From a virus: 64,000 bases of DNA. This document shows, piece after piece, positions 8,507 through 60,756 of this stretch; within the stretch, counting starts at the first letter, position 1; every line of letters begins with the position of its first letter. Where the stretch lies: positions 120,640 through 184,639 of the IMG/VR virus record IMGVR_UViG_3300045988_161114; one strand, given 5' to 3'. Under the pieces are notes generated by a model. That model ran no database searches. It was not told the DNA's origin and saw only the letters and a list, made by a program, of their open reading frames with translations. The position numbers and the translations under genes are program-made.

Positions 8507-11500
8507 ATGGCTAACACTATCAACACAATCAACTTCTTTGCTTCTCTTCCTGAAGATCGTCAAACTGCTATCAAAGAGGTGGCGAATCAACTGGTATCGG
8601 CAATTGGAACGGTTGCTACAAATGAACATAGAGATGTTAAAATCTCTGTACACGGCGTAGAGATTGCGATGCGCATTAAATCTGTATCGCGTAAAGGCAA
8701 AGCGTTTGTGACCTTTGTTAAGGGTCGCAATAACGGAGCAGCTCTTCAATTAATGGGCGCCCTTAAACTTGTAGAGGGTCGCAACTATGCAGTCAATAGG
8801 GTTCTTTGCAGTGGTTACGAGTCTTTCGTTAACAAATTCTTTATGTTAAATAAAGAAACCACAATTGTTGAGAAGAAAAAAGAAGTTACTTTCCGTAAGG
8901 AAATCATCACTTCTGCGGAGGCATTCTTCGGTTTTGTTGTAAAATTGTCTTCCGATTCTAAAAACAAGATCGAAGATATTCTGGATGCTATGCGTCAACG
9001 TCCAGGTCTCAGATATGCGCCCGTATCACATATCATGCCGCGTGCTCAACTTGCCCAATACCGCATTCCTGGTTGGGAGATTGAAACTGGTGAACTGGAT
9101 AGCATGAATTTATCTCCAGACATCAATAGCAAGTTGGCGTCTATTGGTGCATTTAGCCAAGGCGCAGTTGATTCTATGGCTGCAGTGTTCGACAATGATA
9201 TGACATACAGCATCAATGATAGCACTAAGTCAATCGCCCGTTTTGGATTGAATCCATCTGAACATAAATCAGTATCTATAGGCGTTAAAAAAGTTGCAGT
9301 CATTGTAGGTGTCGATATGCCAGAAGGTTACAATCGTCTCAACGATAGCATCTATACTTCTATTGTTGGCGGTGCTATACATGCCAACAAAAATGAGTAC
9401 CTGAAATATGGTGCTGTCCGCGTCATCTCTGAGAACCATGCAAAAGGCGTGGCTGCCTTTATTGGTGATGAGTTTGAGGCTGCTGCTAAAGAACTTGGCG
9501 TTCAATACATCACAGGCAAATTAAAATCCAAGTCTGTAGGCTTAGGATATAATCTTGTTAGCAATGGTAAAAGCCTGAAGGAGTTTATCATTGACCTGTA
9601 CAACGATGCTGAATTCCGGGCTGAGGTAAACAACACTCTGGCTTCTTTTGTTAAAGAGGTTAAGATTGGCGGGCTTGTTTATAAAGTTATCATTATCAAC
9701 GAAGAGCTGCATGTAACTTCTTTCTATTCCCTGGAGGGATGGGAATATACTGAGAAGTTCCTGAACAAGCAAGAGGATATCAAATCTCATGCCTCTATTG
9801 ATGAGGCTGAGTTTGAATTATTGGGTGTTGAACAAATCGACGAGGATTCTTTATCCGAAGAGGAAATCGAGACTCTGAATGCTAGCAGCGTTATGAAATT
9901 GTTTATTGAAAGCATCAAAACCAACCCTGATTTCAAAGTAGGGGAAGAATTGCTTAATATGAAACGCGAAGGCCTGATCACTAAGAGCAAGAAAGTGGGC
10001 CGTATCTCTCTGTTGACCCTTGATTCTATTAAAGATCAATTTGGCGAAGAAGCCCTGAAGTCCTTCTTGGAGGCAAACATTGATAACTCATACCTGGTTG
10101 AGTCATCTATTATGACCAAAGACCTCTCTCCTCGTATTTATGAAGAGGGTGAAATCAAGTTCATCTTGAAAGAACTGTTTGATGATAGCATTGCTTATGC
10201 GGGTAACGGAACTCTGAAGGCAGGGAACTTTAAGTCTTATGGCAAGGACAAACAAATGATCTCCAACACGATCGATCGTTTGCTTAATGGTGATTCTTCA
10301 ATTGGTTGGGTTGGTCTGACCAATACGGGGTTTACTATTGAGTTTGCTGGATACGATTTTGTGTTCCCAGCATGGGGCAAACTTAAAGGCCAGATCATTC
10401 TTCCTAATGAGGATGATTTGAGTGAGGGCCTTATTGGTGGCAAGCTGGTGGGCACTTTGATGTCTATCTACCAAATGATCAAGTTCCAAAACAATAAAGG
10501 TGCTGTATTGACCTATGCCAAACATATGTTGACCTTAGAGCAACTGTTCTTGGGTAGCCGCATTACCAAGATGCGTATGTCTAATAATGCGAACATGATA
10601 CTGGTTCCACAAACAAAAGATCTGGTAAATGTATACACTACAAACAAGACTGTCCGCAAAGGTATCCAAGAAGATGGTCAGCTTGGCTATATCAAATACC
10701 CAGAATTGATGCTGCAATCATTCAAGTTGGTTAGCGCCAAGTCTGATACACCGTTCTGGACATCTTCTGAAGAATATTCTATTTTTGATATCCTGGAGGA
10801 GTCTGTTCTTCGCATTCCTCCAATGCTTGCTTTGTCCAACCAAGACGATTTCGACGGTGATAGAGCCACCGTTTTCTTTGCTAAAGGTCTTGATGGTTAC
10901 GATACCTGGACAACTGAACATACTCTTGGGAAAGATAATCTGATTGGTGCGTATCAGGCTGCATATGTTGCAGATGAAGAAGAGTCTTTGTTAAAAGGTT
11001 TGGATGTTATCAATGATAGCACTATTAAGTGCTATCCTGTTGAGGAGTTCCAAAGTGGTGTAGAAAAACTGGTTAAAGCTAAGCAGGATACCGGGAAATA
11101 TACCAATGCCTTGGTTCAATCAATTCCACTGTTCGAAGCCATGACTGCTTTGAAAGACGGTTTATCTAAAGAAGAGGCACGTATTGCTATTGCCTCTATG
11201 GGTGTTGCCGTACAGAACGGTGCAATTTCACAAATGAAGCATGAGAATAGGGGTTATTCACTTATCGATATGATGTACCTGTTCTCAGCTTCTGAGCGTA
11301 ATGCACACGACGACTCTATCTCTTTGGCTGATGCTTGGGAAGAGGCAATTGAGTCTACAGTCGGCAACAAGGAAATGGCACGTCGCATCTCCACAATTAT
11401 TGCTGAGAAGGCTCCACGTATCATCGAGCACAGCAACATGGTCAAACTTGGCAAAGTATACAGTGAGGGTGAGTACGATTACTACAACCACTTCGGTACA

Positions 11501-11857
11501 AGAGCTACAGGTCTGGCTTTGTCTCGTATGGGGTTTGGCTCATACATGCAAAACCTTAATGGTGTGATCTATTCCTCTATTGATGGAACCGAAGAGGAAA
11601 TCAAAGATTATGTAGATGCTACAATGTCTATTGGTCGTACATTTGATGACTTCTTCAAAGTGGTTGAGTCTCGTGGTACTAAGCACTCTACTGCTCCCAA
11701 AGCCAGCATCTACGGAGCAATAGGTATGTTCTTTGAAGCTGCCGAGAAAGCTGCCAAATCATTGAAAGCTATCCAAGCAATCAATGTGTTTGCTGAGCGT
11801 GAGGCCTCTTCAACTGTTGAGGAACAAGCTTCAGCCTTGAATGACATGGGCTTCTAA
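8507..11857 (+). CDS. Single-chain two-barrel RNA polymerase-like protein (YonO / RdRP-like class), paralogue 1
   Basis: 1116 aa. VLRIPPMLALSNQDDFDGDRATVFF (DFDGD at nt 10847-10861) matches the beta-prime NADFDGD metal loop and the strand before it. The upstream ENHAKGVAAFIG resembles the beta RHGNKGV motif. Confidence 0.75.
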   Translation: MANTINTINFFASLPEDRQTAIKEVANQLVSAIGTVATNEHRDVKISVHGVEIAMRIKSVSRKGKAFVTFVKGRNNGAALQLMGALKLVEGRNYAVNRVLCSGYESFVNKFFMLNKETTIVEKKKEVTFRKEIITSAEAFFGFVVKLSSDSKNKIEDILDAMRQRPGLRYAPVSHIMPRAQLAQYRIPGWEIETGELDSMNLSPDINSKLASIGAFSQGAVDSMAAVFDNDMTYSINDSTKSIARFGLNPSEHKSVSIGVKKVAVIVGVDMPEGYNRLNDSIYTSIVGGAIHANKNEYLKYGAVRVISENHAKGVAAFIGDEFEAAAKELGVQYITGKLKSKSVGLGYNLVSNGKSLKEFIIDLYNDAEFRAEVNNTLASFVKEVKIGGLVYKVIIINEELHVTSFYSLEGWEYTEKFLNKQEDIKSHASIDEAEFELLGVEQIDEDSLSEEEIETLNASSVMKLFIESIKTNPDFKVGEELLNMKREGLITKSKKVGRISLLTLDSIKDQFGEEALKSFLEANIDNSYLVESSIMTKDLSPRIYEEGEIKFILKELFDDSIAYAGNGTLKAGNFKSYGKDKQMISNTIDRLLNGDSSIGWVGLTNTGFTIEFAGYDFVFPAWGKLKGQIILPNEDDLSEGLIGGKLVGTLMSIYQMIKFQNNKGAVLTYAKHMLTLEQLFLGSRITKMRMSNNANMILVPQTKDLVNVYTTNKTVRKGIQEDGQLGYIKYPELMLQSFKLVSAKSDTPFWTSSEEYSIFDILEESVLRIPPMLALSNQDDFDGDRATVFFAKGLDGYDTWTTEHTLGKDNLIGAYQAAYVADEEESLLKGLDVINDSTIKCYPVEEFQSGVEKLVKAKQDTGKYTNALVQSIPLFEAMTALKDGLSKEEARIAIASMGVAVQNGAISQMKHENRGYSLIDMMYLFSASERNAHDDSISLADAWEEAIESTVGNKEMARRISTIIAEKAPRIIEHSNMVKLGKVYSEGEYDYYNHFGTRATGLALSRMGFGSYMQNLNGVIYSSIDGTEEEIKDYVDATMSIGRTFDDFFKVVESRGTKHSTAPKASIYGAIGMFFEAAEKAAKSLKAIQAINVFAEREASSTVEEQASALNDMGF

Positions 11858-11882: not shown

Positions 11883-11937
11883 GACACTACCGCTCCGTTA
11901 CAAATTACTGTAGCGGAAAAGTAGTGTCGATTCTTTT
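11883..11937 (+). terminator. Conserved stem-loop element, copy 1 (long-stem variant)
   Basis: gacactaccgct...agcgg...gtagtgtc, then GATTCTTTT. Lies right after the RNAP-like gene. Confidence 0.5.
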
Positions 11938-11998
11938 GTGAGAACTTACTAAGGTTTCTAGTGAGATCATTAGTATGTACACTGTTTATTTAAAAGTG

Positions 11999-12030
11999 CC
12001 GGCACTCTTAAGGGTGAGTGTCGACACTTT
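11999..12030 (+). repeat. Conserved stem-loop element, copy 2 (degenerate, no T-tract)
   Basis: cgggcactc / gagtgtcg arms with one bulged G. Confidence 0.35.
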
Positions 12031-12062
12031 AATGATTATTTTGTTAACCCTTGGAGAGTATT

Positions 12063-12401
12063 ATGAACTACAACAAATTATTGAAGAAAGACCTTATCGC
12101 GTTACTGGTGAAGAAAGAGTCTGAGGTACAGGCTCTGACTAACAAGGTTGAGGAACTGACCTTGGCTTTACAACGTAATACCGGTGTTATGGAACAACGA
12201 CCTTTGATTGAATCCAATGCTCGTGAAGAGGTTTTGACGTTCGTTCAGAAACGGGATTTGTTGTTCCGTTTCCAAAGGGCATTTGGTACCAAGTTGTATG
12301 ATACTAGAATCAGTACTAATGGTGCTGAATGGCGTAGGAAAGGGGGTACATATGATACTCCGTGGAATCCTATTACTGAAGATACTTTTACTGGTAGGTA
12401 A
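12063..12401 (+). CDS. Hypothetical protein
   Basis: ATG at 12063 after a TGGAG RBS. The ORF-track start is that TTG. Confidence 0.7.
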   Translation: MNYNKLLKKDLIALLVKKESEVQALTNKVEELTLALQRNTGVMEQRPLIESNAREEVLTFVQKRDLLFRFQRAFGTKLYDTRISTNGAEWRRKGGTYDTPWNPITEDTFTGR

Positions 12402-12411
12402 AGCACTAGAG

Positions 12412-12447
12412 ATCGGCGCATTAATATGTGTGTGTCGATTTCTTTTT
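12412..12447 (+). terminator. Conserved stem-loop element, copy 3
   Basis: atcggcgca / tgtgtcgat arms (two G.T pairs), tail TTCTTTTTGAGG. Confidence 0.55.
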
Positions 12448-12483
12448 GAGGTTTTATACCTTGTGTGAGTGTAAGTAACTTTA

Positions 12484-12526
12484 TCGGCACCTTAAGCTTT
12501 ACGGCTTTCGGTGTCGACTCTTTTTT
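12484..12526 (+). terminator. Conserved stem-loop element, copy 4
   Basis: tcggcac / gtgtcga arms, 20-nt loop, tail CTCTTTTTTGATA. Confidence 0.55.
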
Positions 12527-12554
12527 GATATTAACTTTTTTAATGGAGATTGCT

Positions 12555-12755
12555 ATGTTTGTTCCTCATGTCAACTTTGCCAACACTGAAGTCTTAACAG
12601 CATACTTTGAAGAAAATGATCCCTTTGTAGAGATTAAAGAATACCAAGGGTACGTTAAAGCAGTTGATACCGAAACCGGTGAACGTGCTTTTTGGGTTAA
12701 AGGTCTTAATGGATTCTTAACATTCGATAGCAGTAATGCATCTTATTGCTGCTAA
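12555..12755 (+). CDS. Hypothetical small protein
   Basis: ATG at 12555 after a GGAG RBS. The upstream part of the track ORF overlaps hairpin copy 4. Confidence 0.6.
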   Translation: MFVPHVNFANTEVLTAYFEENDPFVEIKEYQGYVKAVDTETGERAFWVKGLNGFLTFDSSNASYCC

Positions 12756-12761
12756 TATTGG

Positions 12762-12795
12762 AATCGGCATCTATTGTAGGTGTCGATTTCTTTTT
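12762..12795 (+). terminator. Conserved stem-loop element, copy 5
   Basis: aatcggcatct / aggtgtcgatt arms, loop attgt, tail TCTTTTTGATTA. Confidence 0.6.
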
Positions 12796-12834
12796 GATTA
12801 TTTTTTTAACTTTTATGGCTATAGGAGGCCCCAA

Positions 12835-13191
12835 ATGAAATACATCCCTACTAAAAACATGTTCCAAATTTGGAATAACCCTGAAGAACGCAAAAAATTT
12901 GAGGACGCAGCACATGATGAAGCTAAAGAAAACTTCATTGCTGAACTCAAAGAAGAGGGCTATAAATCTGTTGAAGAGTACAAAGACTACCTGCGCGGAT
13001 ATAGCAGTGCAGATCTGTTCCATGATGTACTCGAATACCGTGAAGAACGGGACAGAGAGGATGATTTATCTAACCATCCAGATATCAGCCCGGAACAAAG
13101 TTTCCGCCATATGGTTTCATGTTTTGAGCATATCATTAACATCGATATCCATAATGACATCATCGAACAGTTAGACAGATTAGGTAAATAA
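12835..13191 (+). CDS. Hypothetical acidic protein
   Basis: ATG at 12835 after an AGGAGG RBS. 118 aa. Confidence 0.7.
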   Translation: MKYIPTKNMFQIWNNPEERKKFEDAAHDEAKENFIAELKEEGYKSVEEYKDYLRGYSSADLFHDVLEYREERDREDDLSNHPDISPEQSFRHMVSCFEHIINIDIHNDIIEQLDRLGK

Positions 13192-13204
13192 CAATCTATA
13201 AGAG

Positions 13205-13232
13205 TCGGCACATAAAGTGTCGATTCTTTTTT
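13205..13232 (+). terminator. Conserved stem-loop element, copy 6
   Basis: tcggcac / gtgtcga arms, loop ataaa, tail TTCTTTTTTGAG. Confidence 0.6.
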
Positions 13233-13267
13233 GAGTAAAACCTTTTATACGGAGAAAGGAATCCAAA

Positions 13268-13501: not shown

Positions 13502-13511
13502 TACAGAAGAG

Positions 13512-13539
13512 TCGGCGCTTTTAGTGTCGATTCTTTTTT
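13512..13539 (+). terminator. Conserved stem-loop element, copy 7
   Basis: tcggcgct / agtgtcga arms, tail TTCTTTTTTGAAG. Confidence 0.6.
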
Positions 13540-14058: not shown

Positions 14059-14066
14059 TTTGAATC

Positions 14067-14136: not shown

Positions 14137-15072
14137 ATGGCCGACAAAGCAAAAGCTGCGAGAAAGCAGTTGCATAATATTGCAAACGGTATTAAGAATG
14201 CCGCGAAAGGTTATGCTGCTGCTATTGATCAGTCAGTTAAAAAACTCAATGAAGAAAAGGTTATCGCCGGCTTTATTGAGTACAAAACAGTAGCACACGA
14301 ATACATTAAAAATGGTGTACTCGATACGGATCCATACGATGTTATGGATGAAACTAAACCCGAAACCAAACTTGGCAATGTTGCCGATTCAATTTTCACC
14401 AATTACAAGGAAGCCATCATGAAAACCGTAAACGCTAAAAACTTCAAATCTCAACAAGTTCTGGACGCTGAAATGAAAGAAATCAGCAAACTGGACGAAT
14501 CCGGTGTACTGTTGCTGCACTCTGCTGTTGTGAAAGCCAACAAGGAATATATGGCCAACCAAAGCGAAGAAAACAAGGTACGTCTGTATGTTGAAGTTCG
14601 CAAATACATCCGTGCTGTTGCTCACTTTGGTACTAATGATATTACCGGTATCACTATTGCTCAAAGCAATATGGAAGCTGTGAATGAGGTTGCTTCTGAT
14701 ATTTTGTCAGAATTGAAGATGAATGTCAGCACTCATGAAGAAGCTGAAGCTATTGTAGAATCCGTTAAAGATTCTATTAAGCAAACTCCTGAAGCCGTTA
14801 AGAAAGGCTGGACAGGTTCTATTATGGTCGGCCTCACCAAGGTTGGCGGTCTGTTGTGGGACTTTGCCAAAGGTGTTGTATGCTATGTTTATAATGGCGC
14901 TAAGAAAGTAATTGGTTCCATTATCAAAGTATCTGCGCTGGCATTGTCTTGTATCATCGATCTGCTGGACGCCGCTACTACCAAAGACTTTGGTGCTAGT
15001 GGTGCCAAAGGCATCATCCGTAAAGGTATGGTTGCCATGACTAATGTCGAAGAAGAAGCTGTTGCAGCATGA
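14137..15072 (+). CDS. Hypothetical protein with hydrophobic C-terminal region
   Basis: 311 aa with a TAGAAAGGA RBS. Codon usage is less AT-biased than in neighbouring genes. Confidence 0.8.
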   Translation: MADKAKAARKQLHNIANGIKNAAKGYAAAIDQSVKKLNEEKVIAGFIEYKTVAHEYIKNGVLDTDPYDVMDETKPETKLGNVADSIFTNYKEAIMKTVNAKNFKSQQVLDAEMKEISKLDESGVLLLHSAVVKANKEYMANQSEENKVRLYVEVRKYIRAVAHFGTNDITGITIAQSNMEAVNEVASDILSELKMNVSTHEEAEAIVESVKDSIKQTPEAVKKGWTGSIMVGLTKVGGLLWDFAKGVVCYVYNGAKKVIGSIIKVSALALSCIIDLLDAATTKDFGASGAKGIIRKGMVAMTNVEEEAVAA

Positions 15073-15341
15073 TATATGCAGACGCTTCTGAAGTTGGCAA
15101 AGGTGTATTCTTAATTGGATACATCTCTGCTAACAATAGCAAAAGGGCTTATAAGCGCATTAAAGCAAAAGACAATAATGTTGCAGAAAGAGCCGCAATT
15201 GAATTTGCTTTACAGAATAGCGATGGGGAAGTTGTTGCTAGTGACAGTTTAAACAATGTTACTGGTATTAATAACCCACAGGTTGTGTTTGTTCCTCGTA
15301 GCAATAACTTGGCAGACCTGTACATCAAAAGCTGTAAATAG
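15069..15341 (+). CDS. Small RNase H-fold (RVT_3-like) protein
   Basis: 90 aa. YADAS...AERAAIEFAL...ASDSL...VFVPRSNNLADLY follows the D-E-D-D pattern of RNase H-like domains. Confidence 0.55.
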   Translation: MIYADASEVGKGVFLIGYISANNSKRAYKRIKAKDNNVAERAAIEFALQNSDGEVVASDSLNNVTGINNPQVVFVPRSNNLADLYIKSCK

Positions 15342-15454: not shown

Positions 15455-16894
15455 ATGAACCAACAAGCAAACTTTGAAATCAACCCAGCTCGCATCATCT
15501 CTGTTGTACGCAACAACCCTGAAGACTTCCATGAAGTATCCGGTACTGTATACATGCCACGTCCTGAAAATCGTCGTGTGATTTACAGCATCAACCGCCG
15601 CGATACTGATAACGGTCCGGTATTCAGTGTTTACCGTACTCAGAATGTAATGGTGCCTGCGCCTTACAGCAATACCCGTAATGCCCGTGCTACCGGTTGG
15701 GTTATGGCAAATGCCGATGACCATTGGTCTGTAGCACAAAAAGGTGCTGTTGACTTTGTTAACACTCCTGTTGGTGACCATAACCACTGGGCAATGGAAA
15801 CAGCTCTGAAAAGCGATGTTTTCAATGCAATGTCAGTACAAGGTCAATGGACTTATACTTTTGTATGTCCGTCCGATGCAGTAAAACAGTCAGAGTATGA
15901 CGTTATCAACCGTAATGCTTTGGCCATTTTGGGTTTGCAGTCTCAAAAAGAAAACCTGTCTACAATGAACAGCCAATATGTTCACAATACCGGTGAAATC
16001 CGTACTATTGAAAAGGCAATGAATGTTAATGCCATCAATCAGCGTATGGAAGAACTGTACAAAGAATATTTGGTTCAAGTTGCTAAACTGGTCAAAGAAG
16101 AAAAACTGTTTAAAGGTGTAGCGATTTATGCTAACCGCGACACCCTTTTACCGATCGCATTGCCAGAACTTGGTGCTGGTTACGGTCGTGTTGGTAGCAC
16201 AGCAAAAGACTTGTGGGAAAACACTTTGTTCCCTGCAAGCCGCGTAATTGCTGGTTTATTTATGGTAGGTAAAGCAACAGTCAATATGGCTGATGTTGAT
16301 CCTTTGCATTCTGACTTCACCTGCGGTATTCAAGTTACCCAAAACAGCGAGACACAATATACTCGCCGCATTGTTGAAGTAACTAATCCTCAAGGTAATA
16401 AGATTGCAATCCGTACTACTTTGTATGATAACAATCGTGGCAATAGCAATAGCCGTCCTGAAGCCTTTGAACGTGGTATCACTAGCAATCCTGCTATTAT
16501 TTACCAAGCCGGTAACCGTGTAACTATGGAAAGCCGTATTCAAGGTCAAGGACAGCCCTGGGTTACTGTACCGAATATCGTGATTTCCGAATACATCTTC
16601 GACCGCGCTGGTAGTGGTGTTGCCGCTCCTGTCGTATCAGAAGACTTCGATATGTTTGCTGCTCCTGTAGCGACTGTTGAAGAAGTTGAAGAAATCGATA
16701 TCAACAAGATCGAAACAGTAAGCTCTGAAGCTCCGAAAGAGCAAACAGGTGTACAAGCAGCACGTGCACGTCGTTTGGCTCGTGGTACTAAACAGGCTGC
16801 TGAAGAAAAAGAATCAACCCAAACAGTTGATGAATTGCTCTCCGGCGCTGATGGTACTGTAGATCAAGGTGAACAAGAAGAACCTGCTGCTTAA
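15455..16894 (+). CDS. Abundant-looking protein of unknown function with acidic C-terminal tail
   Basis: 479 aa. Flanked by strong hairpins. Codon usage is the least AT-biased in the window. Tail: ...DGTVDQGEQEEPAA. Confidence 0.85.
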   Translation: MNQQANFEINPARIISVVRNNPEDFHEVSGTVYMPRPENRRVIYSINRRDTDNGPVFSVYRTQNVMVPAPYSNTRNARATGWVMANADDHWSVAQKGAVDFVNTPVGDHNHWAMETALKSDVFNAMSVQGQWTYTFVCPSDAVKQSEYDVINRNALAILGLQSQKENLSTMNSQYVHNTGEIRTIEKAMNVNAINQRMEELYKEYLVQVAKLVKEEKLFKGVAIYANRDTLLPIALPELGAGYGRVGSTAKDLWENTLFPASRVIAGLFMVGKATVNMADVDPLHSDFTCGIQVTQNSETQYTRRIVEVTNPQGNKIAIRTTLYDNNRGNSNSRPEAFERGITSNPAIIYQAGNRVTMESRIQGQGQPWVTVPNIVISEYIFDRAGSGVAAPVVSEDFDMFAAPVATVEEVEEIDINKIETVSSEAPKEQTGVQAARARRLARGTKQAAEEKESTQTVDELLSGADGTVDQGEQEEPAA

Positions 16895-19458: not shown

Positions 19459-19821
19459 ATGATTGGGCTTATTGTATTTGGATCACTAGTGACTAGTGTT
19501 GCCATTATTTCTATTTTGGCTAAGGCATCGCCGAAATTATTAAAACGTGTATTGGGATATGAAGCCTATGTTGATTTAGCATTTTCATTGCTGATTGGTA
19601 TGGCTTGCGGTTTTTCTGGTACTATGTCCGGTTTCGTAATTGGTGCAGCTACTGGTCTGATTTTTGGTGTTACTCTTTTTATTCTTGCGCGGGTTTATGG
19701 TTATGCTTGTTATGAAAAGCAGGAAGATGGTACCTATAAATGGGTTGAATATGAACCCAAGTTCAAGATCTCCAATTGGCTGTCTAAATATACCAATAAA
19801 AATATTGGTAAGTTTGCATAA
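19459..19821 (+). CDS. Membrane protein
   Basis: 120 aa with three or four TM segments. Confidence 0.7.
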   Translation: MIGLIVFGSLVTSVAIISILAKASPKLLKRVLGYEAYVDLAFSLLIGMACGFSGTMSGFVIGAATGLIFGVTLFILARVYGYACYEKQEDGTYKWVEYEPKFKISNWLSKYTNKNIGKFA

Positions 19822-26439: not shown

Positions 26440-26534
26440 GGGTATGATGTTCTGCCCTCATATGGTATTATCATATGTTGCCTATTTTTAATAGGAAGAA
26501 CAAATTCTTTTTTAATCATTATGGAGGATTAAAG

Positions 26535-26951
26535 TTGAAGAAGAAAATACTTGCTATACTATTAGCACTACCATCTGTTAGTTTTGCCAAAGAAATTAAA
26601 TGTTTATCAGAAATGGCTTACTATGAGGCTCGCGGCGAAGGCACTCATGGTATAAAAGTTGTTACAGATGTAATGTTTAATAGAATGAAAAGCAATCAAT
26701 TCCCTGATGGAGTTTGTGCTAATTTTAGAAAAAGTGGTCAATATTCTACGGCTAAAATGGCCGGAGGAAGAAAAGACCAAGAGTTGTATAAAAAGGTTTC
26801 AGAACAAGTTGAATCTGAATATGCCAAATATCGTTTAGGTGATTGGCAAGACTCTACTAGTGGAAGTCTTTATTTTAATTCTAATGGATCACGTCCATCC
26901 AATAAAGTAAAATTTAAAGGGAAACGTGGAAGACATTTTCTTTATGGATAG
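26535..26951 (+). CDS. SleB-type cell-wall hydrolase (candidate endolysin) with signal peptide
   Basis: CLSEMAYYEARGEG..GIKVVTDVMFNRMKSNQFPDGVC is the Hydrolase_2/SleB signature. A likely TTG start at 26535 after a GGAGG RBS gives (M)KKKILAILLALPSVSFA. The track ORF starts at 26475. Confidence 0.7.
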   Translation: MKKKILAILLALPSVSFAKEIKCLSEMAYYEARGEGTHGIKVVTDVMFNRMKSNQFPDGVCANFRKSGQYSTAKMAGGRKDQELYKKVSEQVESEYAKYRLGDWQDSTSGSLYFNSNGSRPSNKVKFKGKRGRHFLYG

Positions 26952-27022: not shown

Positions 27023-30000
27023 ATGTACATTCGCTTAAAAGACATTCCAGTAATTGATGCTGATGCTACAGTTGCGGAGGTTTATGAAATTTATTCTAAA
27101 CAGTTGCCACAGGATCCAAGACTTAATTGGAAACTGTTGCAAGATCGTATTGCAATGGAAATTGTAAATGAGATTTCTGAACCGACTACAATTGAGATTC
27201 CTAAATCTTTTTATGATCTCAAATTGAATTGGCCTGAATTTTTGTTTGCAACCAAACATATTGACAGCAGTTCTGACATTGAATTGATGAGTCATCATGA
27301 ACTTATGTTTATGATGTTGTATGAACGCCTTGAATCTTTGTTCAAGTATGATCAACTCTTTACTGAATTGATTCGCAAAGACATCAATTATGTCAAGAAC
27401 CATGTATTGTATGTAACAAGTAATGCATACAATGCTGCTTTGAAAGAATCTTCTGAACTTGTTATTATTTCTCCTTATAATGAGTACAGTAAAGTTTTGA
27501 CATATTTGCATCAAGATAAAGTTATGGGCGACGCATTGCCCATGTTGTTTAATCCATCCGATCGTGCTATTAAGACTTCTGCATTATATTTTAATGTATT
27601 GCCCGGAAGTGAATCAATGCTTGCTGAATCTAATAAAATTATCATTTCTAAAAACGGTAAAGAGTTTCAGGCTCCTGGATTCCAAGTATTTAAAGATGAA
27701 AACGGTGGCTTTGTAGGTTATTCAAGTTTGTTCAAAGTTGGACAGTCTTTGCCTGCCCGTTTCAAGACTCATCTTAATGGTAATGCATTTGGTGTAAGCA
27801 ATCCTTCTAAGTTCATCTTTTTACAGGATGCAATTGAAAAGGATGGTGAATTAATCACTAAGGATAATACCTTAGTTGATGCAGTAATGGTTTATAACGA
27901 TATTGAATTGGAATCGTATCGTTTAGTAGGCGGCGAAATTGAAGTATCGCCTAAAGTAGGCAAAGAAATTGTGTTCACTCCTCGTCATATTGAAACTGAA
28001 TTTGATGAGATTGATGTAAAAGTTGGACAGACTATTTACAGCAAAGGTGGGTACATTAAAATTGGTTCACGTGGCGGTGAAGCAATTTATATCGAAATGG
28101 TAGACCATATTCAGGTTACTTCTATTGAAGAATCGGGATATAATGGGTCCGCCCGCATTGATTATATTGCCTACTATAAAGCTGGTAATGCCCGTATTAC
28201 AAGCCAAACTGGCTTGAAAGGTGTTACTAAAACTATGCGCAGTTGTGGCAAAATCAAGATTCATGAAGATGGCAAAGAAGATAAAATCATCGACGTGGAT
28301 ATTGTAGCTGGTATTAATAGCCTTAAAGGTAAAATGAATACTATTCGTCTTGCTCAAGCAGCTTTTGCATTTAAATATGGCTATTATACCAATGATAAAG
28401 ATTACCTCGACAGTCTTAATGAAGAGGAAATCAATGCCGCTGTTGCGTCATTGCCTACTGCAACTTATGAAAAACGTATTAAACGTGTTGATGGTTATGA
28501 TGATGAAATTATTGTAATTGAAAACGTTAAATACGGCCTGGTTCAGTATTCTTACACTGAATTGGGTAGCCATTTTGCTAAGATTAAGAATCAAGGCATG
28601 TCATTTAATTGTTTGAAATATATTTGTCAAACAACAGATTCATCTCTTGGACAATATATTTTAGATAATTGTATTGATAAATCTGATAAGCAAATTGTTG
28701 AAGAATTGGCAAAAATCTTGTCAGATGAAGGTCATGTATTTGAATACGCTGATAATTATCCGTCATATACATTGATTGAATTGAAGTCAATGTTTAATGA
28801 ACAGGACTTAATCTTGAGTCGTTCTGCTATTATTCCTACTAGCAGTAAATTGTTGGATCCTGAATTCAATAAAGGTTTCTATATCGACTTAAGTAAGGTT
28901 CGTTCTGGTACAAGTATTCGTGTACCATCTGCAGAGATTTTAAATAAATTCTGCGGTAAGCAAAATGATGGTCAATATGTATATCCAACTATGCTTATTG
29001 AATTGTCTAAAATCATTCGTGCAGCAATTGCTGGCCCTAGCCAGTATTTTACTATTGCGCCGCATCGTAATGAACGTAATCATAAGCGTCCTTCCGCATG
29101 GAATGGCTATTTGAATGCAATTAAATCAATGCTGTATCGTACTGAATTAGGTGGTCAAACTTATGTTAAATCACTTATTCAGCCAAGTCTCAAAGGTGTC
29201 AACCTTAAACAGGTTCATGATAAATATGTTCCTGAAGGCAAAGTCGTAATTCTTGATCGTAATATTCTTGAGAGTATTCGTGAGTATATTTATGGCAAGC
29301 CTAATAATAAGACAACTGAAGAGGCAATGCTTGACCAGTTCCGTCCATTAAATGCATTTACTTTGCGTAATCCGTTTTTATGGCGTTCACAGATGATTAT
29401 TTCCCAACTTTGGGGAATTGATGAATTCAATGATTATCTTCAGGAGAATTATGGAATGACTGTCAATGATTATCTGGATGTACAGGGAAATCTGCATTGC
29501 GCTTTGATTTCTACTGAAATTGTAAGACGTAGCCATAGCGACAATGATGGCGACTTATTGCAAATTAGTTCAATACCAGGAATTGAGCAACAAGAAATGA
29601 TGGCTCAATTCAAATTGGAATACTTTACTGAAGATCAAAAACAGTGGGATGAAGACTTCTTGTTGTCTGAGTATTCATCTATTGAAGATGTTGATTGGAG
29701 TAAAAAGTACGAATTGTATTATGTTCCAATTTATCCTAAGCATCCTGGTGATAATGCTTATATGGAATTTCTATGTTCATCAGCTATGGCTAAGAATGCA
29801 GTTGGTCCTGGTACAAATGATGCATGGGTATTTTACATGTTAGTTCAGCTGTATTATGGACTGGCGCGTGATAATGATCCTAAATCGTATGTACCTTGGG
29901 AACGTAAACGTAAAGTACAACTTCGTATTAAAGAAGAAGACTTGTTTACTTATGACCATATTTATACAATGGTTCTTGAAAATCGTGTAATTAATGCGAT

Positions 30001-30409
30001 TAAACATGTGTCAGGTGGAGCTAGCTCTCATGCTGTCTTCTACCTCAAAAACATGACAAAAGACGACAAGAGTGTTAAAAAGGTAATTAAAAGTATCGAG
30101 AATGACTTAGGTTATTCAAGAGAAGTTGCCGTTTCTATTTGTCGTATTGTAAATTGGGCAGTTAATACCAATGCACTTGAAATGTGTAATAAGTTTTTAC
30201 GCATGCACAATAAAGGTGCCCTAGTTGATCTAGGTGATGCGGATATTCAGATGTGGTTTAAACACATTGTTGATTATACGTTCTTTGGCAGTATGCTTGC
30301 ACCGATTTTTACCATTTATGGTCAAAGTCAAGGATTAATTCCTTTAGGCGAAAATGCAGAAAATAATGTGGCCGAAGTTATGGACACTTTTGACGCAATT
30401 GGTTTTTAA
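27023..30409 (+). CDS. Single-chain two-barrel RNA polymerase-like protein, paralogue 2
   Basis: 1128 aa. TSQTGLKGVTK...VDIVAGINSLKGKMNTIRLAQ resembles beta GRHGNKGVISK...VDIVLNPLGVPSRMNIGQ. About 440 aa later, LHCALISTEIVRRSHSDNDGDLLQI (DNDGD at nt 29540-29554) resembles the beta-prime NADFDGD loop. Confidence 0.75.
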   Translation: MYIRLKDIPVIDADATVAEVYEIYSKQLPQDPRLNWKLLQDRIAMEIVNEISEPTTIEIPKSFYDLKLNWPEFLFATKHIDSSSDIELMSHHELMFMMLYERLESLFKYDQLFTELIRKDINYVKNHVLYVTSNAYNAALKESSELVIISPYNEYSKVLTYLHQDKVMGDALPMLFNPSDRAIKTSALYFNVLPGSESMLAESNKIIISKNGKEFQAPGFQVFKDENGGFVGYSSLFKVGQSLPARFKTHLNGNAFGVSNPSKFIFLQDAIEKDGELITKDNTLVDAVMVYNDIELESYRLVGGEIEVSPKVGKEIVFTPRHIETEFDEIDVKVGQTIYSKGGYIKIGSRGGEAIYIEMVDHIQVTSIEESGYNGSARIDYIAYYKAGNARITSQTGLKGVTKTMRSCGKIKIHEDGKEDKIIDVDIVAGINSLKGKMNTIRLAQAAFAFKYGYYTNDKDYLDSLNEEEINAAVASLPTATYEKRIKRVDGYDDEIIVIENVKYGLVQYSYTELGSHFAKIKNQGMSFNCLKYICQTTDSSLGQYILDNCIDKSDKQIVEELAKILSDEGHVFEYADNYPSYTLIELKSMFNEQDLILSRSAIIPTSSKLLDPEFNKGFYIDLSKVRSGTSIRVPSAEILNKFCGKQNDGQYVYPTMLIELSKIIRAAIAGPSQYFTIAPHRNERNHKRPSAWNGYLNAIKSMLYRTELGGQTYVKSLIQPSLKGVNLKQVHDKYVPEGKVVILDRNILESIREYIYGKPNNKTTEEAMLDQFRPLNAFTLRNPFLWRSQMIISQLWGIDEFNDYLQENYGMTVNDYLDVQGNLHCALISTEIVRRSHSDNDGDLLQISSIPGIEQQEMMAQFKLEYFTEDQKQWDEDFLLSEYSSIEDVDWSKKYELYYVPIYPKHPGDNAYMEFLCSSAMAKNAVGPGTNDAWVFYMLVQLYYGLARDNDPKSYVPWERKRKVQLRIKEEDLFTYDHIYTMVLENRVINAIKHVSGGASSHAVFYLKNMTKDDKSVKKVIKSIENDLGYSREVAVSICRIVNWAVNTNALEMCNKFLRMHNKGALVDLGDADIQMWFKHIVDYTFFGSMLAPIFTIYGQSQGLIPLGENAENNVAEVMDTFDAIGF

Positions 30410-33359: not shown

Positions 33360-33800
33360 ATGTCTTGTACTGTATATTTATACACAGATGGAGCATGCAA
33401 AGGCAATCCTGGTCCTGGAGGATGGGGATACCTTTTGAAATGTGGTGAAAAATCTATACATGATTCTGGTTCTGAAAAGGACACTACGAATAATCGTATG
33501 GAATTAATGGCGGTTATTAATGGCTTATCTAAGCTTAACCAATTTTGTAATGTAATCATTTCTACTGATTCCCAATATGTTAAAAACGGAATGGAAGAAT
33601 GGATACATAATTGGAAAAAGAATGGCTGGAAAGGTTCCAATAAAAAACCTGTTAAGAATGTTGATTTATGGCAAAGGCTTGATACTTTAGTTCAAAAATT
33701 TAATGTTTCTTGGGAATGGGTTAAAGGTCATTCCGGCCATACTGAAAATGAATTTGTTGATACTCTAGCTAGCAATGCAGCAGAATCAATTAAGGATTAA
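33360..33800 (+). CDS. rnhA: Ribonuclease HI
   Basis: YTDGACKGNPGPGGWGY...NNRMELMAVINGL...TDSQYV...WVKGHSGHTENEFVD is the full RNase HI signature. Confidence 0.9.
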   Translation: MSCTVYLYTDGACKGNPGPGGWGYLLKCGEKSIHDSGSEKDTTNNRMELMAVINGLSKLNQFCNVIISTDSQYVKNGMEEWIHNWKKNGWKGSNKKPVKNVDLWQRLDTLVQKFNVSWEWVKGHSGHTENEFVDTLASNAAESIKD

Positions 33801-56835: not shown

Positions 56836-57162
56836 ATGAATACCAAAAGATTCTATATATTGAAAGAAAATGCAATTTCTTCTATATTTAATGATAAAGA
56901 ATATAATCCCAATATTTTTTCTATTAATGATTTAAAAGAAATTGGTTCTTTAAATAATTACTCTGTTGTTTATACTAAATCAACTTCAGAGTTTTTACAC
57001 AGAAATCTTATATTGTTTTCTGAATATGTAATCGATATTGTTATTTTTGGGAATGATTTAAAGTCTTTTAATGTTCTCAAAAGTAGAGCTGCATTTACTA
57101 TGGAAAATGCAGTAGAATTGTTAGATTTGATTGAGGTAAATAAATATGCAGCAATATATTAA
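56836..57162 (+). CDS. Hypothetical protein
   Basis: 108 aa. Confidence 0.6.
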   Translation: MNTKRFYILKENAISSIFNDKEYNPNIFSINDLKEIGSLNNYSVVYTKSTSEFLHRNLILFSEYVIDIVIFGNDLKSFNVLKSRAAFTMENAVELLDLIEVNKYAAIY

Positions 57163-58015
57163 TTTGGTTAAGGATGTTTTAGAGAATGGAACTCCAAAAC
57201 CAAACCGTACAGAAATCCCTACGCCATATACGGTATTCGGGCGCCAGATTCGATTTGATTTGTCGGAAGGTTTACCTATTCTGACAACCAAGAAGATGGC
57301 TGTAAAAGCCTGTATCGCTGAACTATTGTGGTTTATCGAAGGGAGTTCTCATGAACGTCGTTTAGCCGAGATTCAATACCAAAAGCCTCGCAAAGAATTA
57401 AGAAATAAACGGACAATTTGGTCTGATAATTATGAAGCATGGACTGGTAAAAAGATTAGTAATGTTCGCTATGGAGATCTTGGCTGTGTGTATGGAGTTC
57501 AATGGCGAAATTTTACTATTTATGGTAATCACGCACTTGCAGATGATTTTGACCAATTATTTTGGTTGGTCAATGAATTGAAAACAAATCCCAATAGCCG
57601 GAAGTTAATTATGCTGTCATACAATCCGGCACAAATTGAGAACGCCGCATTAACAGCTTGTCATACACAAGTCCAATTCCAAGTACAAAATGGGAAATTG
57701 AATTGTATGTGGACACAAGCAAGTGTTGACTTATTTCTTGGACTTCCATTCAATATTCTTTCTTATGCTATTTTAACTCATATGTTGGCAAAAGAAGTAG
57801 GGCTCGAAGTTGGAGAACTGATTGGTTCTCTTGGAGACGTACACATTTATGAAAACGCCGTTGAAAATTTAAAGACACAAATTGAACGTGAGCCATTGCC
57901 TCTTCCTAAATTATGGCTAAATCCTGATAAGGATATTTTCCATTATAAAATGGATGATATTCGTATTGATGGATATGAAAGCCATGAAGTATTAAAAGCT
58001 AAAATGGCGGTTTGA
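57146..58015 (+). CDS. thyA: Thymidylate synthase (ThyA) family enzyme
   Basis: NRT...TTKK...ELLWFIEG...ACHTQVQFQV (catalytic Cys)...DLFLGLPFNILSYAIL...GDVHIY is collinear with E. coli ThyA. The QRS phosphate-binding Arg position reads QAS. Confidence 0.85.
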   Translation: MQQYINLVKDVLENGTPKPNRTEIPTPYTVFGRQIRFDLSEGLPILTTKKMAVKACIAELLWFIEGSSHERRLAEIQYQKPRKELRNKRTIWSDNYEAWTGKKISNVRYGDLGCVYGVQWRNFTIYGNHALADDFDQLFWLVNELKTNPNSRKLIMLSYNPAQIENAALTACHTQVQFQVQNGKLNCMWTQASVDLFLGLPFNILSYAILTHMLAKEVGLEVGELIGSLGDVHIYENAVENLKTQIEREPLPLPKLWLNPDKDIFHYKMDDIRIDGYESHEVLKAKMAV

Positions 58016-58121: not shown

Positions 58122-58763
58122 ATGGAAATTCTTAGTTCTATTTTTTATAAAATTATCAATTATATAAATTTATATTTATTTAGTGGGAGTTCTTTTAAGA
58201 TCAGAAAGCTTGCTAAAAAGAATAATGGAGACTCAATTTATTCTTCTGCCAGTTTAATGAGTCCATCTTATGTAAAAGTTATATTCCATGATATAGTTGA
58301 TTATAAGAATTTTATAAGAGATGTTATTTTAAATTCTAGTGATATAAAAAATTGGGATTTTTATTTTGCTACTGTTTTAGAAAACAATAATATTATAGCA
58401 ACCTTCCATTATTCTAATGATGAAAATCTTCCTGATATTTTAAGTAAAAAATATATTGATATTGCTTTGCATTCATTGGATATATTTTCTAATATTATTG
58501 AAAGTAATAGTATTTTAGAAATGAAAGTTGAAAGCAATACGGTAATTATTCCGGATGGTTATAATTATTATATTAGTGGTCCTAATAAGTCTACAACCAT
58601 TACTAAAGATGATAAGAAATTGGTTATAAAAAATGAAAGTTATTGCTTGTTAAGCAATTCTTGCTTTGAAGTTTTAAAAAATATGATTGAAAAAATTTCT
58701 TATCAAAACAAAATTTTGTACAATATTGATTTGGATTTAGATAATTTAAAGTTATTCAAATAA
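58122..58763 (+). CDS. Hypothetical protein
   Basis: 213 aa. Confidence 0.65.
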   Translation: MEILSSIFYKIINYINLYLFSGSSFKIRKLAKKNNGDSIYSSASLMSPSYVKVIFHDIVDYKNFIRDVILNSSDIKNWDFYFATVLENNNIIATFHYSNDENLPDILSKKYIDIALHSLDIFSNIIESNSILEMKVESNTVIIPDGYNYYISGPNKSTTITKDDKKLVIKNESYCLLSNSCFEVLKNMIEKISYQNKILYNIDLDLDNLKLFK

Positions 58764-59178: not shown

Positions 59179-60756
59179 ATGACATCTCCACTTTTTAAAA
59201 CTCAACGTCCTAAATTGGCAGTTGGTAAAACTACAAGTATTCCTGCCACTCGTGTTAACACTATAAACGAAGCTGGTGGCGCTGCTTATTCAATGAGTCA
59301 TGAACATGCATTAGCTCAATATGTAGTTACAGGTATGTTTGATAACACTTGTTATCTTGATGGACATACTCAACTTAAGCATATTAAAGAGCTTGCTAAT
59401 AAATGTAGTAATAATTTTGTTATGCGTTTGGCTGTTTATGCTCATGAATATGGTTATATGAAAGATACTTCTGCATATCTGCTTGGTTATTTAATGAAAC
59501 AGAATGACAAGAGTTATTTTAAACGTGCATTTCCGCTCGTTATTACAAATGGCCGTATGCTTCGTACATTTGTTCAAATTATTCGTTCTGGTGCATTTGG
59601 TTCTCGTAGTTTTGGTACAGTGGCCAAAAAAGCTATTCAAGACTATTTGAATAACTGTACTGATAAACAAATTATTAATGCTTCTATTGGTAATAATCCA
59701 TCTCTTAAAGATGTGATCATGATGGTTCATCCTAAAGCAAACAATAGTTCACGTAATCAACTTTATCGTTGGGTATGTGGCTTTGATTTTGATGAAAAAC
59801 AGTTACCGGTAGAATTGCAAAAATATTTAAAATTGCAAAAAGATCCATCTGGATTTGAAGAGCTTCCAAAAGTTCCATTCCAAATGTGTACAAGTATGCC
59901 ATTGACTGATGCTGGATGGAAAGCAATTTTTGATATTTCAACTTGGCAACAAATTCGTATGAATTTGGCTACTTTTGATCGACATAATGTCTTCAATGAT
60001 TTTTCTTATGTAAATAAAGCATATGAACGTTTAGTTTCTCGTGACGATATTCTTCGTTCTAAAGTTATGCCTTATTCTGTATTTAGTGCATATCTAAATG
60101 CAGGTTCTATTCCTGCTCGTATTAAAGATGCATTGAATACTGCTTTACAAATTAGTCTTGAGAATATCCCAAAGACTGATGGCAAAACAGTTCTTGCAAT
60201 TGATTATTCTGGTTCTATGACCTGGAAAATTAATTTGAAAAGTTCTGTTCGTCATATTGATATTGCTGCAGTATTTGCTGCTGCATTGAAATTCCGTAAT
60301 CCGGAAGCAGAGATTGTTTTATTTAACAGTCGCGCAAGAGACTATATTGTCAATCCGGAAACCACTGTGTTACAATTAGCTAATAATATTTCTCGTTTAG
60401 CCAATGGTGGCACTGATTGTGGTGCAGCCCTTCAGCATATTTATGATAAAGGTCGTTATAGTGGAATGCCTGACAATATCATTATGATTAGTGATAATCA
60501 ATCATGGCTTGGATTCAATAGAGGCCATAAAACCACTGCGCAAAGAATTTTCGATGATATTCGAAAAATTAATCCTCGCGCCAAAATGGTTAATATTGAT
60601 ATTGCACCAATGTCAAGTTCTCAGACTTCACCTAGTGAACATGTACTTAATATCGGCGGATTTAATGATACAGTATTTAAAATTGTATCAGATTTCTTTG
60701 AGTCTAAAGGCGATAAGTCATTCTGGGTAAACAAAATTAAGGCTATTGAAATTTAA
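59179..60756 (+). CDS. Ro60-like TROVE-domain + vWA protein (Rsr orthologue)
   Basis: 525 aa. N-terminal ..NEAGGAAY...ALAQYVVTGMFDNTCY.. is TROVE-like. The C-terminal vWA domain has the MIDAS motif LAIDYSGSM. Confidence 0.8.
   Translation: MTSPLFKTQRPKLAVGKTTSIPATRVNTINEAGGAAYSMSHEHALAQYVVTGMFDNTCYLDGHTQLKHIKELANKCSNNFVMRLAVYAHEYGYMKDTSAYLLGYLMKQNDKSYFKRAFPLVITNGRMLRTFVQIIRSGAFGSRSFGTVAKKAIQDYLNNCTDKQIINASIGNNPSLKDVIMMVHPKANNSSRNQLYRWVCGFDFDEKQLPVELQKYLKLQKDPSGFEELPKVPFQMCTSMPLTDAGWKAIFDISTWQQIRMNLATFDRHNVFNDFSYVNKAYERLVSRDDILRSKVMPYSVFSAYLNAGSIPARIKDALNTALQISLENIPKTDGKTVLAIDYSGSMTWKINLKSSVRHIDIAAVFAAALKFRNPEAEIVLFNSRARDYIVNPETTVLQLANNISRLANGGTDCGAALQHIYDKGRYSGMPDNIIMISDNQSWLGFNRGHKTTAQRIFDDIRKINPRAKMVNIDIAPMSSSQTSPSEHVLNIGGFNDTVFKIVSDFFESKGDKSFWVNKIKAIEI

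Follow-up and report, generated by a model that had tools for sequence, protein, structure and literature searches.

A conserved pair of large, unannotated phage proteins with the features of single-chain two-barrel RNA polymerases

The stretch of phage DNA analysed here, hereafter called the window, comprises 64,000 nucleotides (positions 120,640 to 184,639 of the IMG/VR virus record IMGVR_UViG_3300045988_161114) and encodes two large proteins, ORF1 and ORF2 (ORF, open reading frame), which most likely represent an unannotated family of single-chain two-barrel nucleotide polymerases, namely DNA-dependent RNA polymerases (RNAPs). ORF1 (8507..11857; 1116 amino acids, aa) and ORF2 (27023..30409; 1128 aa) are both located on the + strand, as are all their features given below; both start with ATG and are intact. 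In broad kind, they would be the same as YonO, gp64 and gp96 of phage P23-45, the crAss-like gp66, and QDE-1. The original prediction, which was made from the nucleotide sequence and proposed two single-chain two-barrel RNAP-like paralogues, is supported by the conservation of motifs, by the RNAP neighbours of a structural model in Foldseek, by collinearity with YonO and by the remote homology of the two proteins, though no match to a known RNAP is strong. We put the probability that ORF1 and ORF2 are catalytically active as two-barrel RNAPs and serve in phage transcription at about 0.75.

Two-barrel RNAPs are the universal cellular transcriptases, and their minimal single-chain relatives in phages offer the best view of the least protein needed for the mechanism as well as of the evolution of the enzyme. 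To our knowledge, few single-chain phage RNAPs have been characterised, i.e. YonO, gp66, gp64 and gp96. The family described here escapes detection by Pfam, PHROGs and NCBIfam as well as by HMMER searches of the PDB, and its members are labelled 'hypothetical' in every source; it is widespread in large metagenome-assembled phage genomes, the window's own contig being from human gut. Through its ORF2 branch, the family extends to a phage in culture, Acinetobacter phage ME3, and this provides an immediate experimental handle; recognition of the genes would alter the annotation of the transcription strategy of these phages. In a 2025 paper that discusses the Aeromonas giant phage 332-Igor alongside ME3, no RNAP gene was found in 332-Igor (PMC12390700).

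Motifs, paralogy and family

The strings by which the first protein had originally been recognised are all present in ORF1 where they had been placed: HAKGV at aa 311-315, IKYPELMLQSFKLV at aa 729-742 and VLRIPPMLALSNQDDFDGDRATVFF at aa 766-790. Correspondences with Escherichia coli, whose beta and beta-prime sequences were taken from NC_000913, are drawn at the level of motifs. In the N-terminal part of ORF1, HAKGV forms the end of GAVRVISENHAKGV (aa 302-315; 9410..9451), the counterpart of beta GDKMAGRHGNKGV; R305 and K313 correspond to K1065 and K1073, and in both proteins the two basic residues are 8 positions apart (E. coli GDK1065MAGRHGNK1073GV, ORF1 GAVR305VISENHAK313GV, ORF2 GNAR391ITSQTGLK399GV). 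The surrounding region (aa ~255-415; 9269..9751, with approximate boundaries) is the candidate for the beta-like double-psi beta-barrel (DPBB-B); it is rich in predicted strands and mostly has predicted local distance difference test (pLDDT) scores of 83-96 in the AlphaFold model. Within it, LKSKSVG (aa 339-345; 9521..9541) carries the invariant K340, a candidate for a third basic residue, whose position may be equivalent to that of R1106 in beta PSRMN.

The beta-prime-like barrel of ORF1 (DPBB-A; aa ~690-790; 10574..10876) is modelled as strands at 694-701 and 709-711, a helix at 714-723, strands at 725-729 and 739-746, a helix at 754-763, a strand at 767-770, the metal loop, and a last strand at 786-790. 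Two motifs stand out in this region. IKYPELM (aa 729-735; 10691..10711), with the invariant P732, is the counterpart of beta-prime RAPTLH and of LRSPHLY in YonO. NQDDFDGDR (aa 778-786; 10838..10864) aligns to DNDGD of YonO, DYDGD of gp64 and DFDGD of beta-prime, and its invariant D781, D783 and D785 are predicted to form the catalytic Mg2+-binding triad. Just past this barrel follows a helix of 35 residues (aa 845-879; 11039..11143) with AKQDTGKYTNAL, in which K859, G863 and N867 are conserved; it aligns to ..NIG..SNNITKI of YonO and is a candidate for the bridge helix. A candidate for the trigger loop is QMKH (aa 909-912; 11231..11242), to be compared with MRTFH of beta-prime, to which it may be equivalent. 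Its invariant K911 and H912 lie in a unit of helix end, low-confidence loop and second helix, and the spacing within the motif is unlike that of beta-prime. The protein ends with ALNDMGF (11834..11854).

As had been predicted, ORF2 has the same layout, with GNARITSQTGLKGV (aa 388-401; 28184..28225), LRNPFLW (aa 781-787; 29363..29383) and HSDNDGDL (aa 838-845; 29534..29557) in collinear order. The first of these contains the beta-like basic pair R391/K399; downstream of it, NSLKGKMNT (aa 432-440; 28316..28342), with IDVDIV ahead, resembles beta VDIVLNPLGVPSRMN at the motif level only. LRNPFLW is the RAPTLH-like motif of the beta-prime barrel (E. coli RAPTLH, ORF1 KYPELM, ORF2 RNPFLW). HSDNDGDL is the predicted metal-binding loop (E. 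coli NADFDGD, ORF1 QDDFDGD, ORF2 HSDNDGD), and its DNDGD is identical to that of YonO. AKNAVGPGTND (aa 923-933; 29789..29821) is the bridge-helix candidate and, in homologues, a site of interruption by introns or homing endonucleases. With the tail FDAIGF (30389..30406), ORF2 shares the ending D.(I/M)GF with ORF1 (DAIGF and NDMGF, respectively), as had been noticed before. The distance from HAKGV to D781 in ORF1, expected to be around 470 aa within the same chain, is 468 residues; the corresponding distance from basic motif to aspartate loop in ORF2 is 441.

Conservation in the ORF1 family was derived from 16 sequences with identities down to 25%. Invariant in this set are R305, H311, K313, G314, V315, K340, P732, N778, D780, D781, D783, G784, D785, R786, K859, K911 and H912. 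A superfamily alignment of 53 sequences, in which the ORF1 family was merged with representatives of an exhaustive HMMER search, retains D781 as invariant, and G302, R305, K313, K340, D783, G784, D785, K859, G863 and K911 are conserved in at least 90% of the sequences. DFDGD of ORF1 (781-785) and DNDGD of ORF2 (840-844) are both conserved in 90% or more of the sequences, if not invariant; the RAPTLH-like motif of the ORF2 family has invariant R782, P784, L786 and W787; and G..R-x7-KGV, with the 8-residue spacing of beta K1065/K1073, is invariant in both families. To check for chance occurrence, we searched every six-frame ORF of the window with 60 aa or more (247 ORFs, 31,703 residues). D.DGD and G..[RK].{7}KGV each occur twice, in ORF1 and in ORF2, in the same order and with similar spacing. 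The coincidence is hence peculiar to ORF1 and ORF2 and does not reflect the sequence at large.

Both paralogues are probably catalytically competent. According to the proposed mechanism, the N-terminal beta-like barrel would supply the conserved basic residues (R305, K313 and K340 in ORF1), and the C-terminal beta-prime-like barrel the Mg2+-binding triad (D781, D783 and D785 in ORF1); a long bridge-like helix, and then a helix-loop-helix with the conserved K-H, would follow directly after the latter barrel.

A BLASTP comparison of ORF1 and ORF2 is not significant; their homology is visible at the profile level only. Alignment of the ORF1-family and ORF2-family alignments by hhalign gives a probability of 95% (E 3.5e-8) over 346 columns and pairs ORF1 580-966 with ORF2 634-1044; the metal loop, the AK..G..TN helix and the (M/I)KH motif all fall within this span. 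The N-terminal halves align weakly (P 0.021), at the expected motif, i.e. R305-K313 with R391-K399. A hidden Markov model of 33 distant representatives, among which neither ORF is included, recovers ORF1 (9e-101) as well as ORF2 homologues of the ME3 type (6e-16 to 2e-11). Furthermore, the structural model of ORF1 matches the BFVD model of the ME3 protein A0A172Q021 (802 aa) with E 2.7e-5; this is presumably ME3 gp152, the product of the 5' exon of the ORF2 homologue. On the strength of these comparisons, ORF1 and ORF2 are regarded as remote homologues, i.e. anciently diverged paralogues. A third paralogue was found neither in the window nor in 47 related loci.

For neither protein is there a family match in Pfam, PHROGs or NCBIfam, and profile searches of these libraries and sequence searches of the PDB did not assign them to an unrelated family either. 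In a tblastn search of 50,697 GenBank phage records, no match was obtained for ORF1 or two of its distant relatives, and ORF2 matched only vB_AbaM_ME3 (28.5% identity over 92% of the length, E 1e-64) and a fragment in PBAB25. ME3 is the only cultured-phage relative of ORF2 over near-full length, and the matching proteins are annotated as hypothetical. The ORF1 family consists of about 50 near-identical clusters (85-89% identity) and two divergent groups at 27-30%; its members, all without a name, stem from metagenomic contigs that do not exceed 186 kb, apart from a single contig of 360 kb. ORF1 recurs in identical form on a 184,711-bp contig of the human gut metagenome ERR589438. The ORF2 family is more diverse than the ORF1 family, with identities down to 23%. 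When 1.84 billion representatives were searched exhaustively by HMMER with the profile of the ORF1 family, only 43 clusters reached E <= 0.001, mostly with proteins of 850-1,580 aa; a third search for homologues by word index, based on the alignment of the ORF1 family, yielded no further sequences. Pfam and PHROGs detected no RNAP domain in 33 full-length distant relatives (P0078-P0117 set), one of which has a fused RNase H domain (Pfam 5.4e-9; phrog_531 2.3e-11). The family thus appears to be unannotated and new, with no library model, name or, in full-text searches, paper found; an earlier listing among the 23 family alignments of PMC10770324, which were not compared, is possible.

Predicted fold and comparison with characterised polymerases

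The AlphaFold model of ORF1 based on the 53-sequence alignment has a pLDDT of 73.2 and a predicted template-modelling (TM) score, pTM, of 0.73, and both barrel regions lie at 80-96. The metal loop sits between predicted strands in a six-strand region (pLDDT 80-93), and the strand-rich region of the beta-like barrel reaches values above 90. When the model was compared with the PDB by Foldseek, rank 1 was taken by 8f72_B, 'Phage P32 gp64 - RNA polymerase' (E 0.018, probability 0.94, 422 columns, TM 0.12/0.21). Ranks 2-42 are all largest subunits of RNAPs (vaccinia, bacterial, archaeal and Pol II), and many of them share about 140 columns at 4-6 A with the model in their beta-prime/Rpb1 chains. 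Ranks 43-44 belong to the p97 N-domain, which is another double-psi barrel.

Alignment of the superfamily to a profile of the YonO family, built from 63 IMG/VR sequences, gives P 0.0035 and a probability of 9% over 147 collinear columns. It joins SKxPVLF with LRSPHLY, qnDxDGD with LQFDNDGD, and AK..VG..TN with ..NIG..SN, so that the aligned span runs from the beta-prime-like barrel with its metal loop into the first part of the candidate bridge helix. With a single YonO sequence, hhalign aligned 14 columns only. The metal loop and the bridge-like helix are separated by 74 residues in ORF1, compared with about 60 in YonO, whereas E. coli beta-prime has about 320 between them; this spacing places ORF1 with the minimal single-chain enzymes. 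That two large proteins of an unrelated fold should resemble polymerases in their motifs by chance would agree with the lack of a significant sequence or structure match to a characterised RNAP, but is scarcely credible given three or four collinear motifs that are conserved in two families and exclusive to ORF1 and ORF2 within the window, 42 top PDB neighbours in a row that are RNAPs, and a YonO alignment that is collinear over 147 columns.

Several results weigh against the interpretation of ORF1 and ORF2 as RNAPs. No comparison with a characterised RNAP is significant on its own. The fold model covers ORF1, and a first alignment of 16 sequences yielded an unusable model (pLDDT 37). The Foldseek comparison anticipated in the original prediction turned out as expected for ORF1 in the kind of neighbours, with the gp64 type first and 41 RNAP subunits behind it, but not in strength, as no PDB match of the ORF1 model attains E <= 0.001; of the relatives named there, the phi14:2 RNAP (6VR4) and QDE-1 (2J7N) are outside the top 50. 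Searches of the PDB by phmmer and hmmsearch, whether with single sequences or with three profiles (ORF1 family, ORF2 family, distant representatives), returned no match. For the beta-like barrel, profile methods gave no match to YonO or RpoB, and there is no beta/Rpb2 barrel among the listed Foldseek matches of the ORF1 model; the assignment of this barrel rests on motifs and predicted secondary structure. Against single RpoB and RpoC sequences, hhalign aligned the metal loop or nothing (P 0.07-0.7). Against the single P23-45 proteins gp64 and gp96, it aligned the loop region only (P 0.02-0.06; gp64 P 0.023 over 71 columns); gp64 was compared as a single sequence, as IMG/VR contains P23-45 alone. 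Finally, no clear promoter was found around the polymerase genes.

The data from sequence and model leave room for a different interpretation, according to which the proteins are two-barrel polymerases but not transcriptases, one or both of them acting in replication or RNA metabolism, for instance as a primase-like enzyme that makes RNA primers, an RNA-dependent RNA polymerase (RdRP) of the QDE-1 type, or a PolD-like DNA polymerase. The two-barrel superfamily does include RdRPs and the archaeal PolD (PMC10770324, PMC7824862), one distant family member carries the fused RNase H domain, and the window itself encodes an RNase H (33360..33800) and, in the vicinity of ORF2, a rich complement of RNA-repair functions. 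We nevertheless consider such a role unlikely. The closest structural neighbours are DNA-dependent RNAPs, while PolD and QDE-1 are outside the top 50; the RNase H fusion is present in only 1 of 33 members; and the conserved pair of paralogues fits the two-RNAP logic of P23-45 and the phiKZ-type phages.

Gene pair, tails and hairpin elements in the genome context

A scan of IMG/VR with both family alignments revealed 24 and 23 loci, respectively. On 18 IMG/VR contigs (104-188 kb), which fall into three clades, both genes are present in the same order and 14-17 kb apart; between clades, ORF1 is about 29% and ORF2 about 46% identical. Several genes between the pair are syntenic, among them homologues of 14137..15072, 15069..15341, 15455..16894 and 19459..19821 and of a SleB-like hydrolase (26475..26951) just upstream of ORF2. 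In a fourth, ME3-like clade (183-243 kb), only the ORF2 type is found in the 10 kb examined on each side; for ME3, neither this 10-kb surrounding nor a tblastn search of the whole record (E <= 1e-5) contains an ORF1-type partner. One of the syntenic genes, 19459-19821 (+), encodes a protein of 120 aa (phrog_19152) that is 60% identical across the gut-phage clades. Two loci of the distant ME3-like clade (L047, 9068-9343; L049, 7777-8085) also contain a homologue of it, which precedes the ORF2-type gene by 1-2 kb on the upstream side, and the protein is a candidate for an accessory factor of the ORF2-type polymerase.

The extended Shine-Dalgarno sequence TAGAAAGGAC precedes both polymerase genes and is marginally enriched (8 found, 3.7 expected). 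In base composition, the two genes differ. The G+C content at third codon positions (GC3) is 0.42 in ORF1 and 0.34-0.42 in ORF1 and its downstream neighbours (14137..15072, 15455..16894; GC 0.42-0.44) taken together, 0.27 in ORF2, and about 0.11-0.31 in most other genes of the window. The composition of the segment 8001-16900 suggests a different expression class or history. With its high GC3, ORF1 looks like a highly expressed late gene; as the fourth gene past a divergent switch in transcription direction near 6.9 kb, it looks like an early one, and as hints at which of the two enzymes might be packaged in the virion, these observations conflict.

That the GC3 of ORF1 is markedly above that of most window genes could also point to descendants of polymerases which have taken on a structural or ejection role in the virion, for instance as internal or tail-associated proteins, and in which the catalytic motif is kept for another reason or the function was lost recently. 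A BFVD neighbour, A0A8S5SD80 (1423 aa, E 1.4e-3), is indeed annotated as 'Minor tail protein', and gp96 of P23-45 is a tape-measure fusion (PMC10770324). Yet all catalytic residues of both barrels are invariant across 25-30% identity in both paralogues, which argues for retained catalysis, and an association with the virion is compatible with polymerase activity, for gp96, gp66 and the phiKZ virion RNAP are both. A purely structural role is in our view very unlikely.

In the interpretation that we favour, the two enzymes would split phage transcription by gene class, for instance with one starting the programme and the other continuing it, by analogy with P23-45 and phiKZ/AR9; the original prediction had suggested an early and a late, or a virion and a non-virion, enzyme. 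Phage transcription would thereby be partly or wholly independent of the host RNAP.

Within each clade, the C-terminal tails of ORF1-type and ORF2-type proteins resemble each other. The window clade has ...NDMGF in the ORF1 type and ...DAIGF in the ORF2 type; in the second clade, the corresponding ends are ...VVVAETL and ...IEVSDVL, and in the third ...AIDML and ...IDIDFL or ...DISIL. The comparison covers the C-termini of loci L003-L046 with about two tail types, and its statistics are thin. The end of P23-45 gp64, ...LFADLFSI, is likewise acidic-hydrophobic. In phage T7, the C-terminal tails of gp2.5 and gp4 have the same binding site on the T7 DNA polymerase. By analogy, a shared docking partner for both tails is a reasonable hypothesis.

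The intergenic regions between the polymerase genes contain a hairpin followed by a T-run, YCGGCAC-loop-GTGTCGR-TnnTTTTWYGA, which recurs in 14 copies along the coding strand from 11.9 to 22.9 kb (11922-22916, +). The GTGTCGA cores start at 11924, 12432, 12511, 12780, 13217, 13524, 13632, 14093, 15371, 19002, 19211, 20191, 22177 and 22909. The element is usually located 16-40 nt upstream of a Shine-Dalgarno sequence, and the 10-mer TAGTGTCGAT has 17 matches with at most 1 mismatch, almost all on the coding strand, where 2.5 +/- 1.6 are expected. Related loci have it as well (L015, 13141-21830; L031, 9787 and 9951; L006, 12941-22402). In other clades, whose proteins are 29-46% identical, the variant GTGTCGG occupies equivalent intergenic positions, and the closing pair of the stem shows a compensatory change from T...A in the window clade to C...G in the third clade. 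A simple repeat or a mobile element was rejected as an explanation on account of this variant at the same intergenic positions in divergent clades and of the compensatory stem change. In form, the element looks like an intrinsic terminator, and intrinsic-terminator-like hairpins are in excess around the polymerase genes (29 found, 11 +/- 3 expected), while sigma-70-like sites occur there at background frequency (85 found, 79 +/- 9 expected); we count this context in favour of the polymerase interpretation. Sequence conservation across divergent phages is unusual for terminators, which suggests recognition by a conserved factor; judged by this pattern, the element may be a terminator, a promoter or both for the phage enzymes.

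One can go further and propose that phages of about 180 kb run a self-contained transcription with two free-standing, minimal single-chain enzymes of the two-barrel type, both docking to one partner via their lineage-specific, co-varying acidic-hydrophobic tails and using the hairpin as a dedicated start and/or stop signal. Such a system would constitute a third design beside the phiKZ-type split and the N4/T7-type enzymes. As a whole, this extension of the two-RNAP interpretation is tentative and rather doubtful.

The ORF2 homologues have a further peculiarity, as several of them are interrupted (loci L034-L043, L044, and ME3 with L001). In ME3 (L001, 5881-10616), a group I intron (Rfam RF00028, 51 bits) with an endonuclease gene lies between gp152 and gp154; hence, the two 'hypothetical proteins' of ME3 are exons of one gene. 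In ME3, as well as in L034, L035 and L044 of clade 3, the coding sequence is broken at the bridge-helix-like AK.AVG motif or immediately behind it. The ORF2-type gene of clade 2 is divided into two or three parts, and one of the breaks lies upstream of AK.AVG by about 130-150 residues. The ORF1-type genes are uninterrupted in all loci seen, with both barrels in one ORF. Homing elements usually target critical, invariant sites. The bridge-helix-like motif is the kind of invariant site that they target, and we count its interruption in favour of the polymerase interpretation.

The genome of the window is rich in selfish elements. A group I intron (58814-59052, +; RF00028, 83.6 bits) lies between the genes 58122..58763 and 59179..60756, and a protein of 462 aa (137-1525, -) contains an intein (Pfam Intein_splicing, 5e-15). 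A nicotinamide phosphoribosyltransferase (NAMPT) of 821 aa (46895-49360, +) is divided into two halves by about 330 inserted residues, which match PHROG families that bear inteins. The NAMPT gene belongs to a dense cluster of nicotinamide adenine dinucleotide (NAD) salvage and RNA repair (41461-56597, +), which further includes a cREC receiver domain, a phosphoribosyl pyrophosphate (PRPP) synthase, a metallophosphoesterase, two or three RNA ligases and a polynucleotide kinase; the cluster is followed by a thymidylate synthase (57146..58015) and a Ro-like RNA-binding protein (59179..60756). Among the RNA genes, a permuted two-piece transfer-messenger RNA (tmRNA) gene of the alpha type (24796-25222, +; RF04321 115.8 bits, RF01849 104.8 bits) lies in an ORF-free stretch of 1.7 kb and specifies the tag peptide ANDDVYMVRAAA according to ARAGORN. 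Two transfer RNA (tRNA) matches of 122-124 nt (61227-61348 and 62339-62462, +) may contain introns, and tRNA-Pro (60991) and tRNA-Arg (63037) are also present.

Relation to known systems

The original prediction had called the arrangement of two distinct minimal RNAPs in one phage unusual. This is a fair description, but there are precedents. P23-45 possesses two paralogous single-chain two-barrel RNAPs with divided roles, gp96 for pre-early genes and gp64 for early and middle genes (PMC10770324), and phages of the phiKZ/AR9 type possess two multisubunit RNAP sets (PMC7598289).

The P23-45 enzymes, the non-virion gp64 and the N-terminal portion of the virion protein gp96, which is fused to the tape measure, are like ORF1 and ORF2 single-chain and ancient duplicates within one genome (PDB 8f72; PMC10770324). 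Their bridge helix, like its candidate counterpart in ORF1, comes close behind the barrel that holds the metal loop, and among PDB structures the ORF1 model has its best neighbour in the gp64 type. However, sequence similarity is not detectable past the DxDGD loop (hhalign P 0.02-0.06), and gp64 has 616 aa compared with about 1,100 aa in ORF1 and ORF2. Unlike gp96, ORF1 and ORF2 are free-standing, equal-sized and without a tape-measure fusion, and they are encoded in a human-gut phage genome of about 185 kb rather than in the 84-kb genome of a Thermus siphovirus.

YonO of the Bacillus prophage SPbeta is likewise a single peptide, homologous to multisubunit RNAP, with a beta-like barrel followed by a beta-prime-like barrel as proposed for ORF1 and ORF2 (PMC5467207), and its DNDGD loop is identical to that of ORF2. 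Its similarity is marginal, however, and confined to the C-terminal barrel, the N-terminal barrel being unaligned; a similarity over the full length was not found, and no profile of the ORF1 or ORF2 family matches YonO by HMMER. Moreover, YonO has 839 aa and is encoded only once in its temperate phage, whereas two proteins of about 1,100 aa are present here. The crAss-like phi14:2 gp66 and the Neurospora QDE-1 (PDB 6VR4 and 2J7N) are single-chain two-barrel enzymes, too, and gp66 is packaged in the virion and has about 2,180 aa. Neither structure is among the 50 best PDB matches of the ORF1 model. The pair of gp66 and QDE-1 is defined by a connector of about 140 residues and an extended DPBB-B helix.

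The jumbo phages of the phiKZ/AR9 type resemble the window's phage in having two two-barrel RNAP sets per genome and a presumed independence of the host RNAP (PMC7598289, PMC4666361), but each of their enzymes is split into 4-5 polypeptides and is closer to the cellular beta/beta-prime, whereas here each consists of one chain. In ME3, gp152 together with gp154 is a true homologue of ORF2, though split by an intron and without a detected ORF1-type partner; no phage in culture is known to have the complete pair. Already known, then, are single-chain two-barrel RNAPs of phages and the arrangement as two paralogues in P23-45. What appears to be new is a free-standing, equal-sized pair in large phage genomes from human gut and other metagenomes, and its extension to Acinetobacter phages of the ME3 type; compared with P23-45, it would be the second, independent ancient duplication of a single-chain RNAP in a phage lineage.

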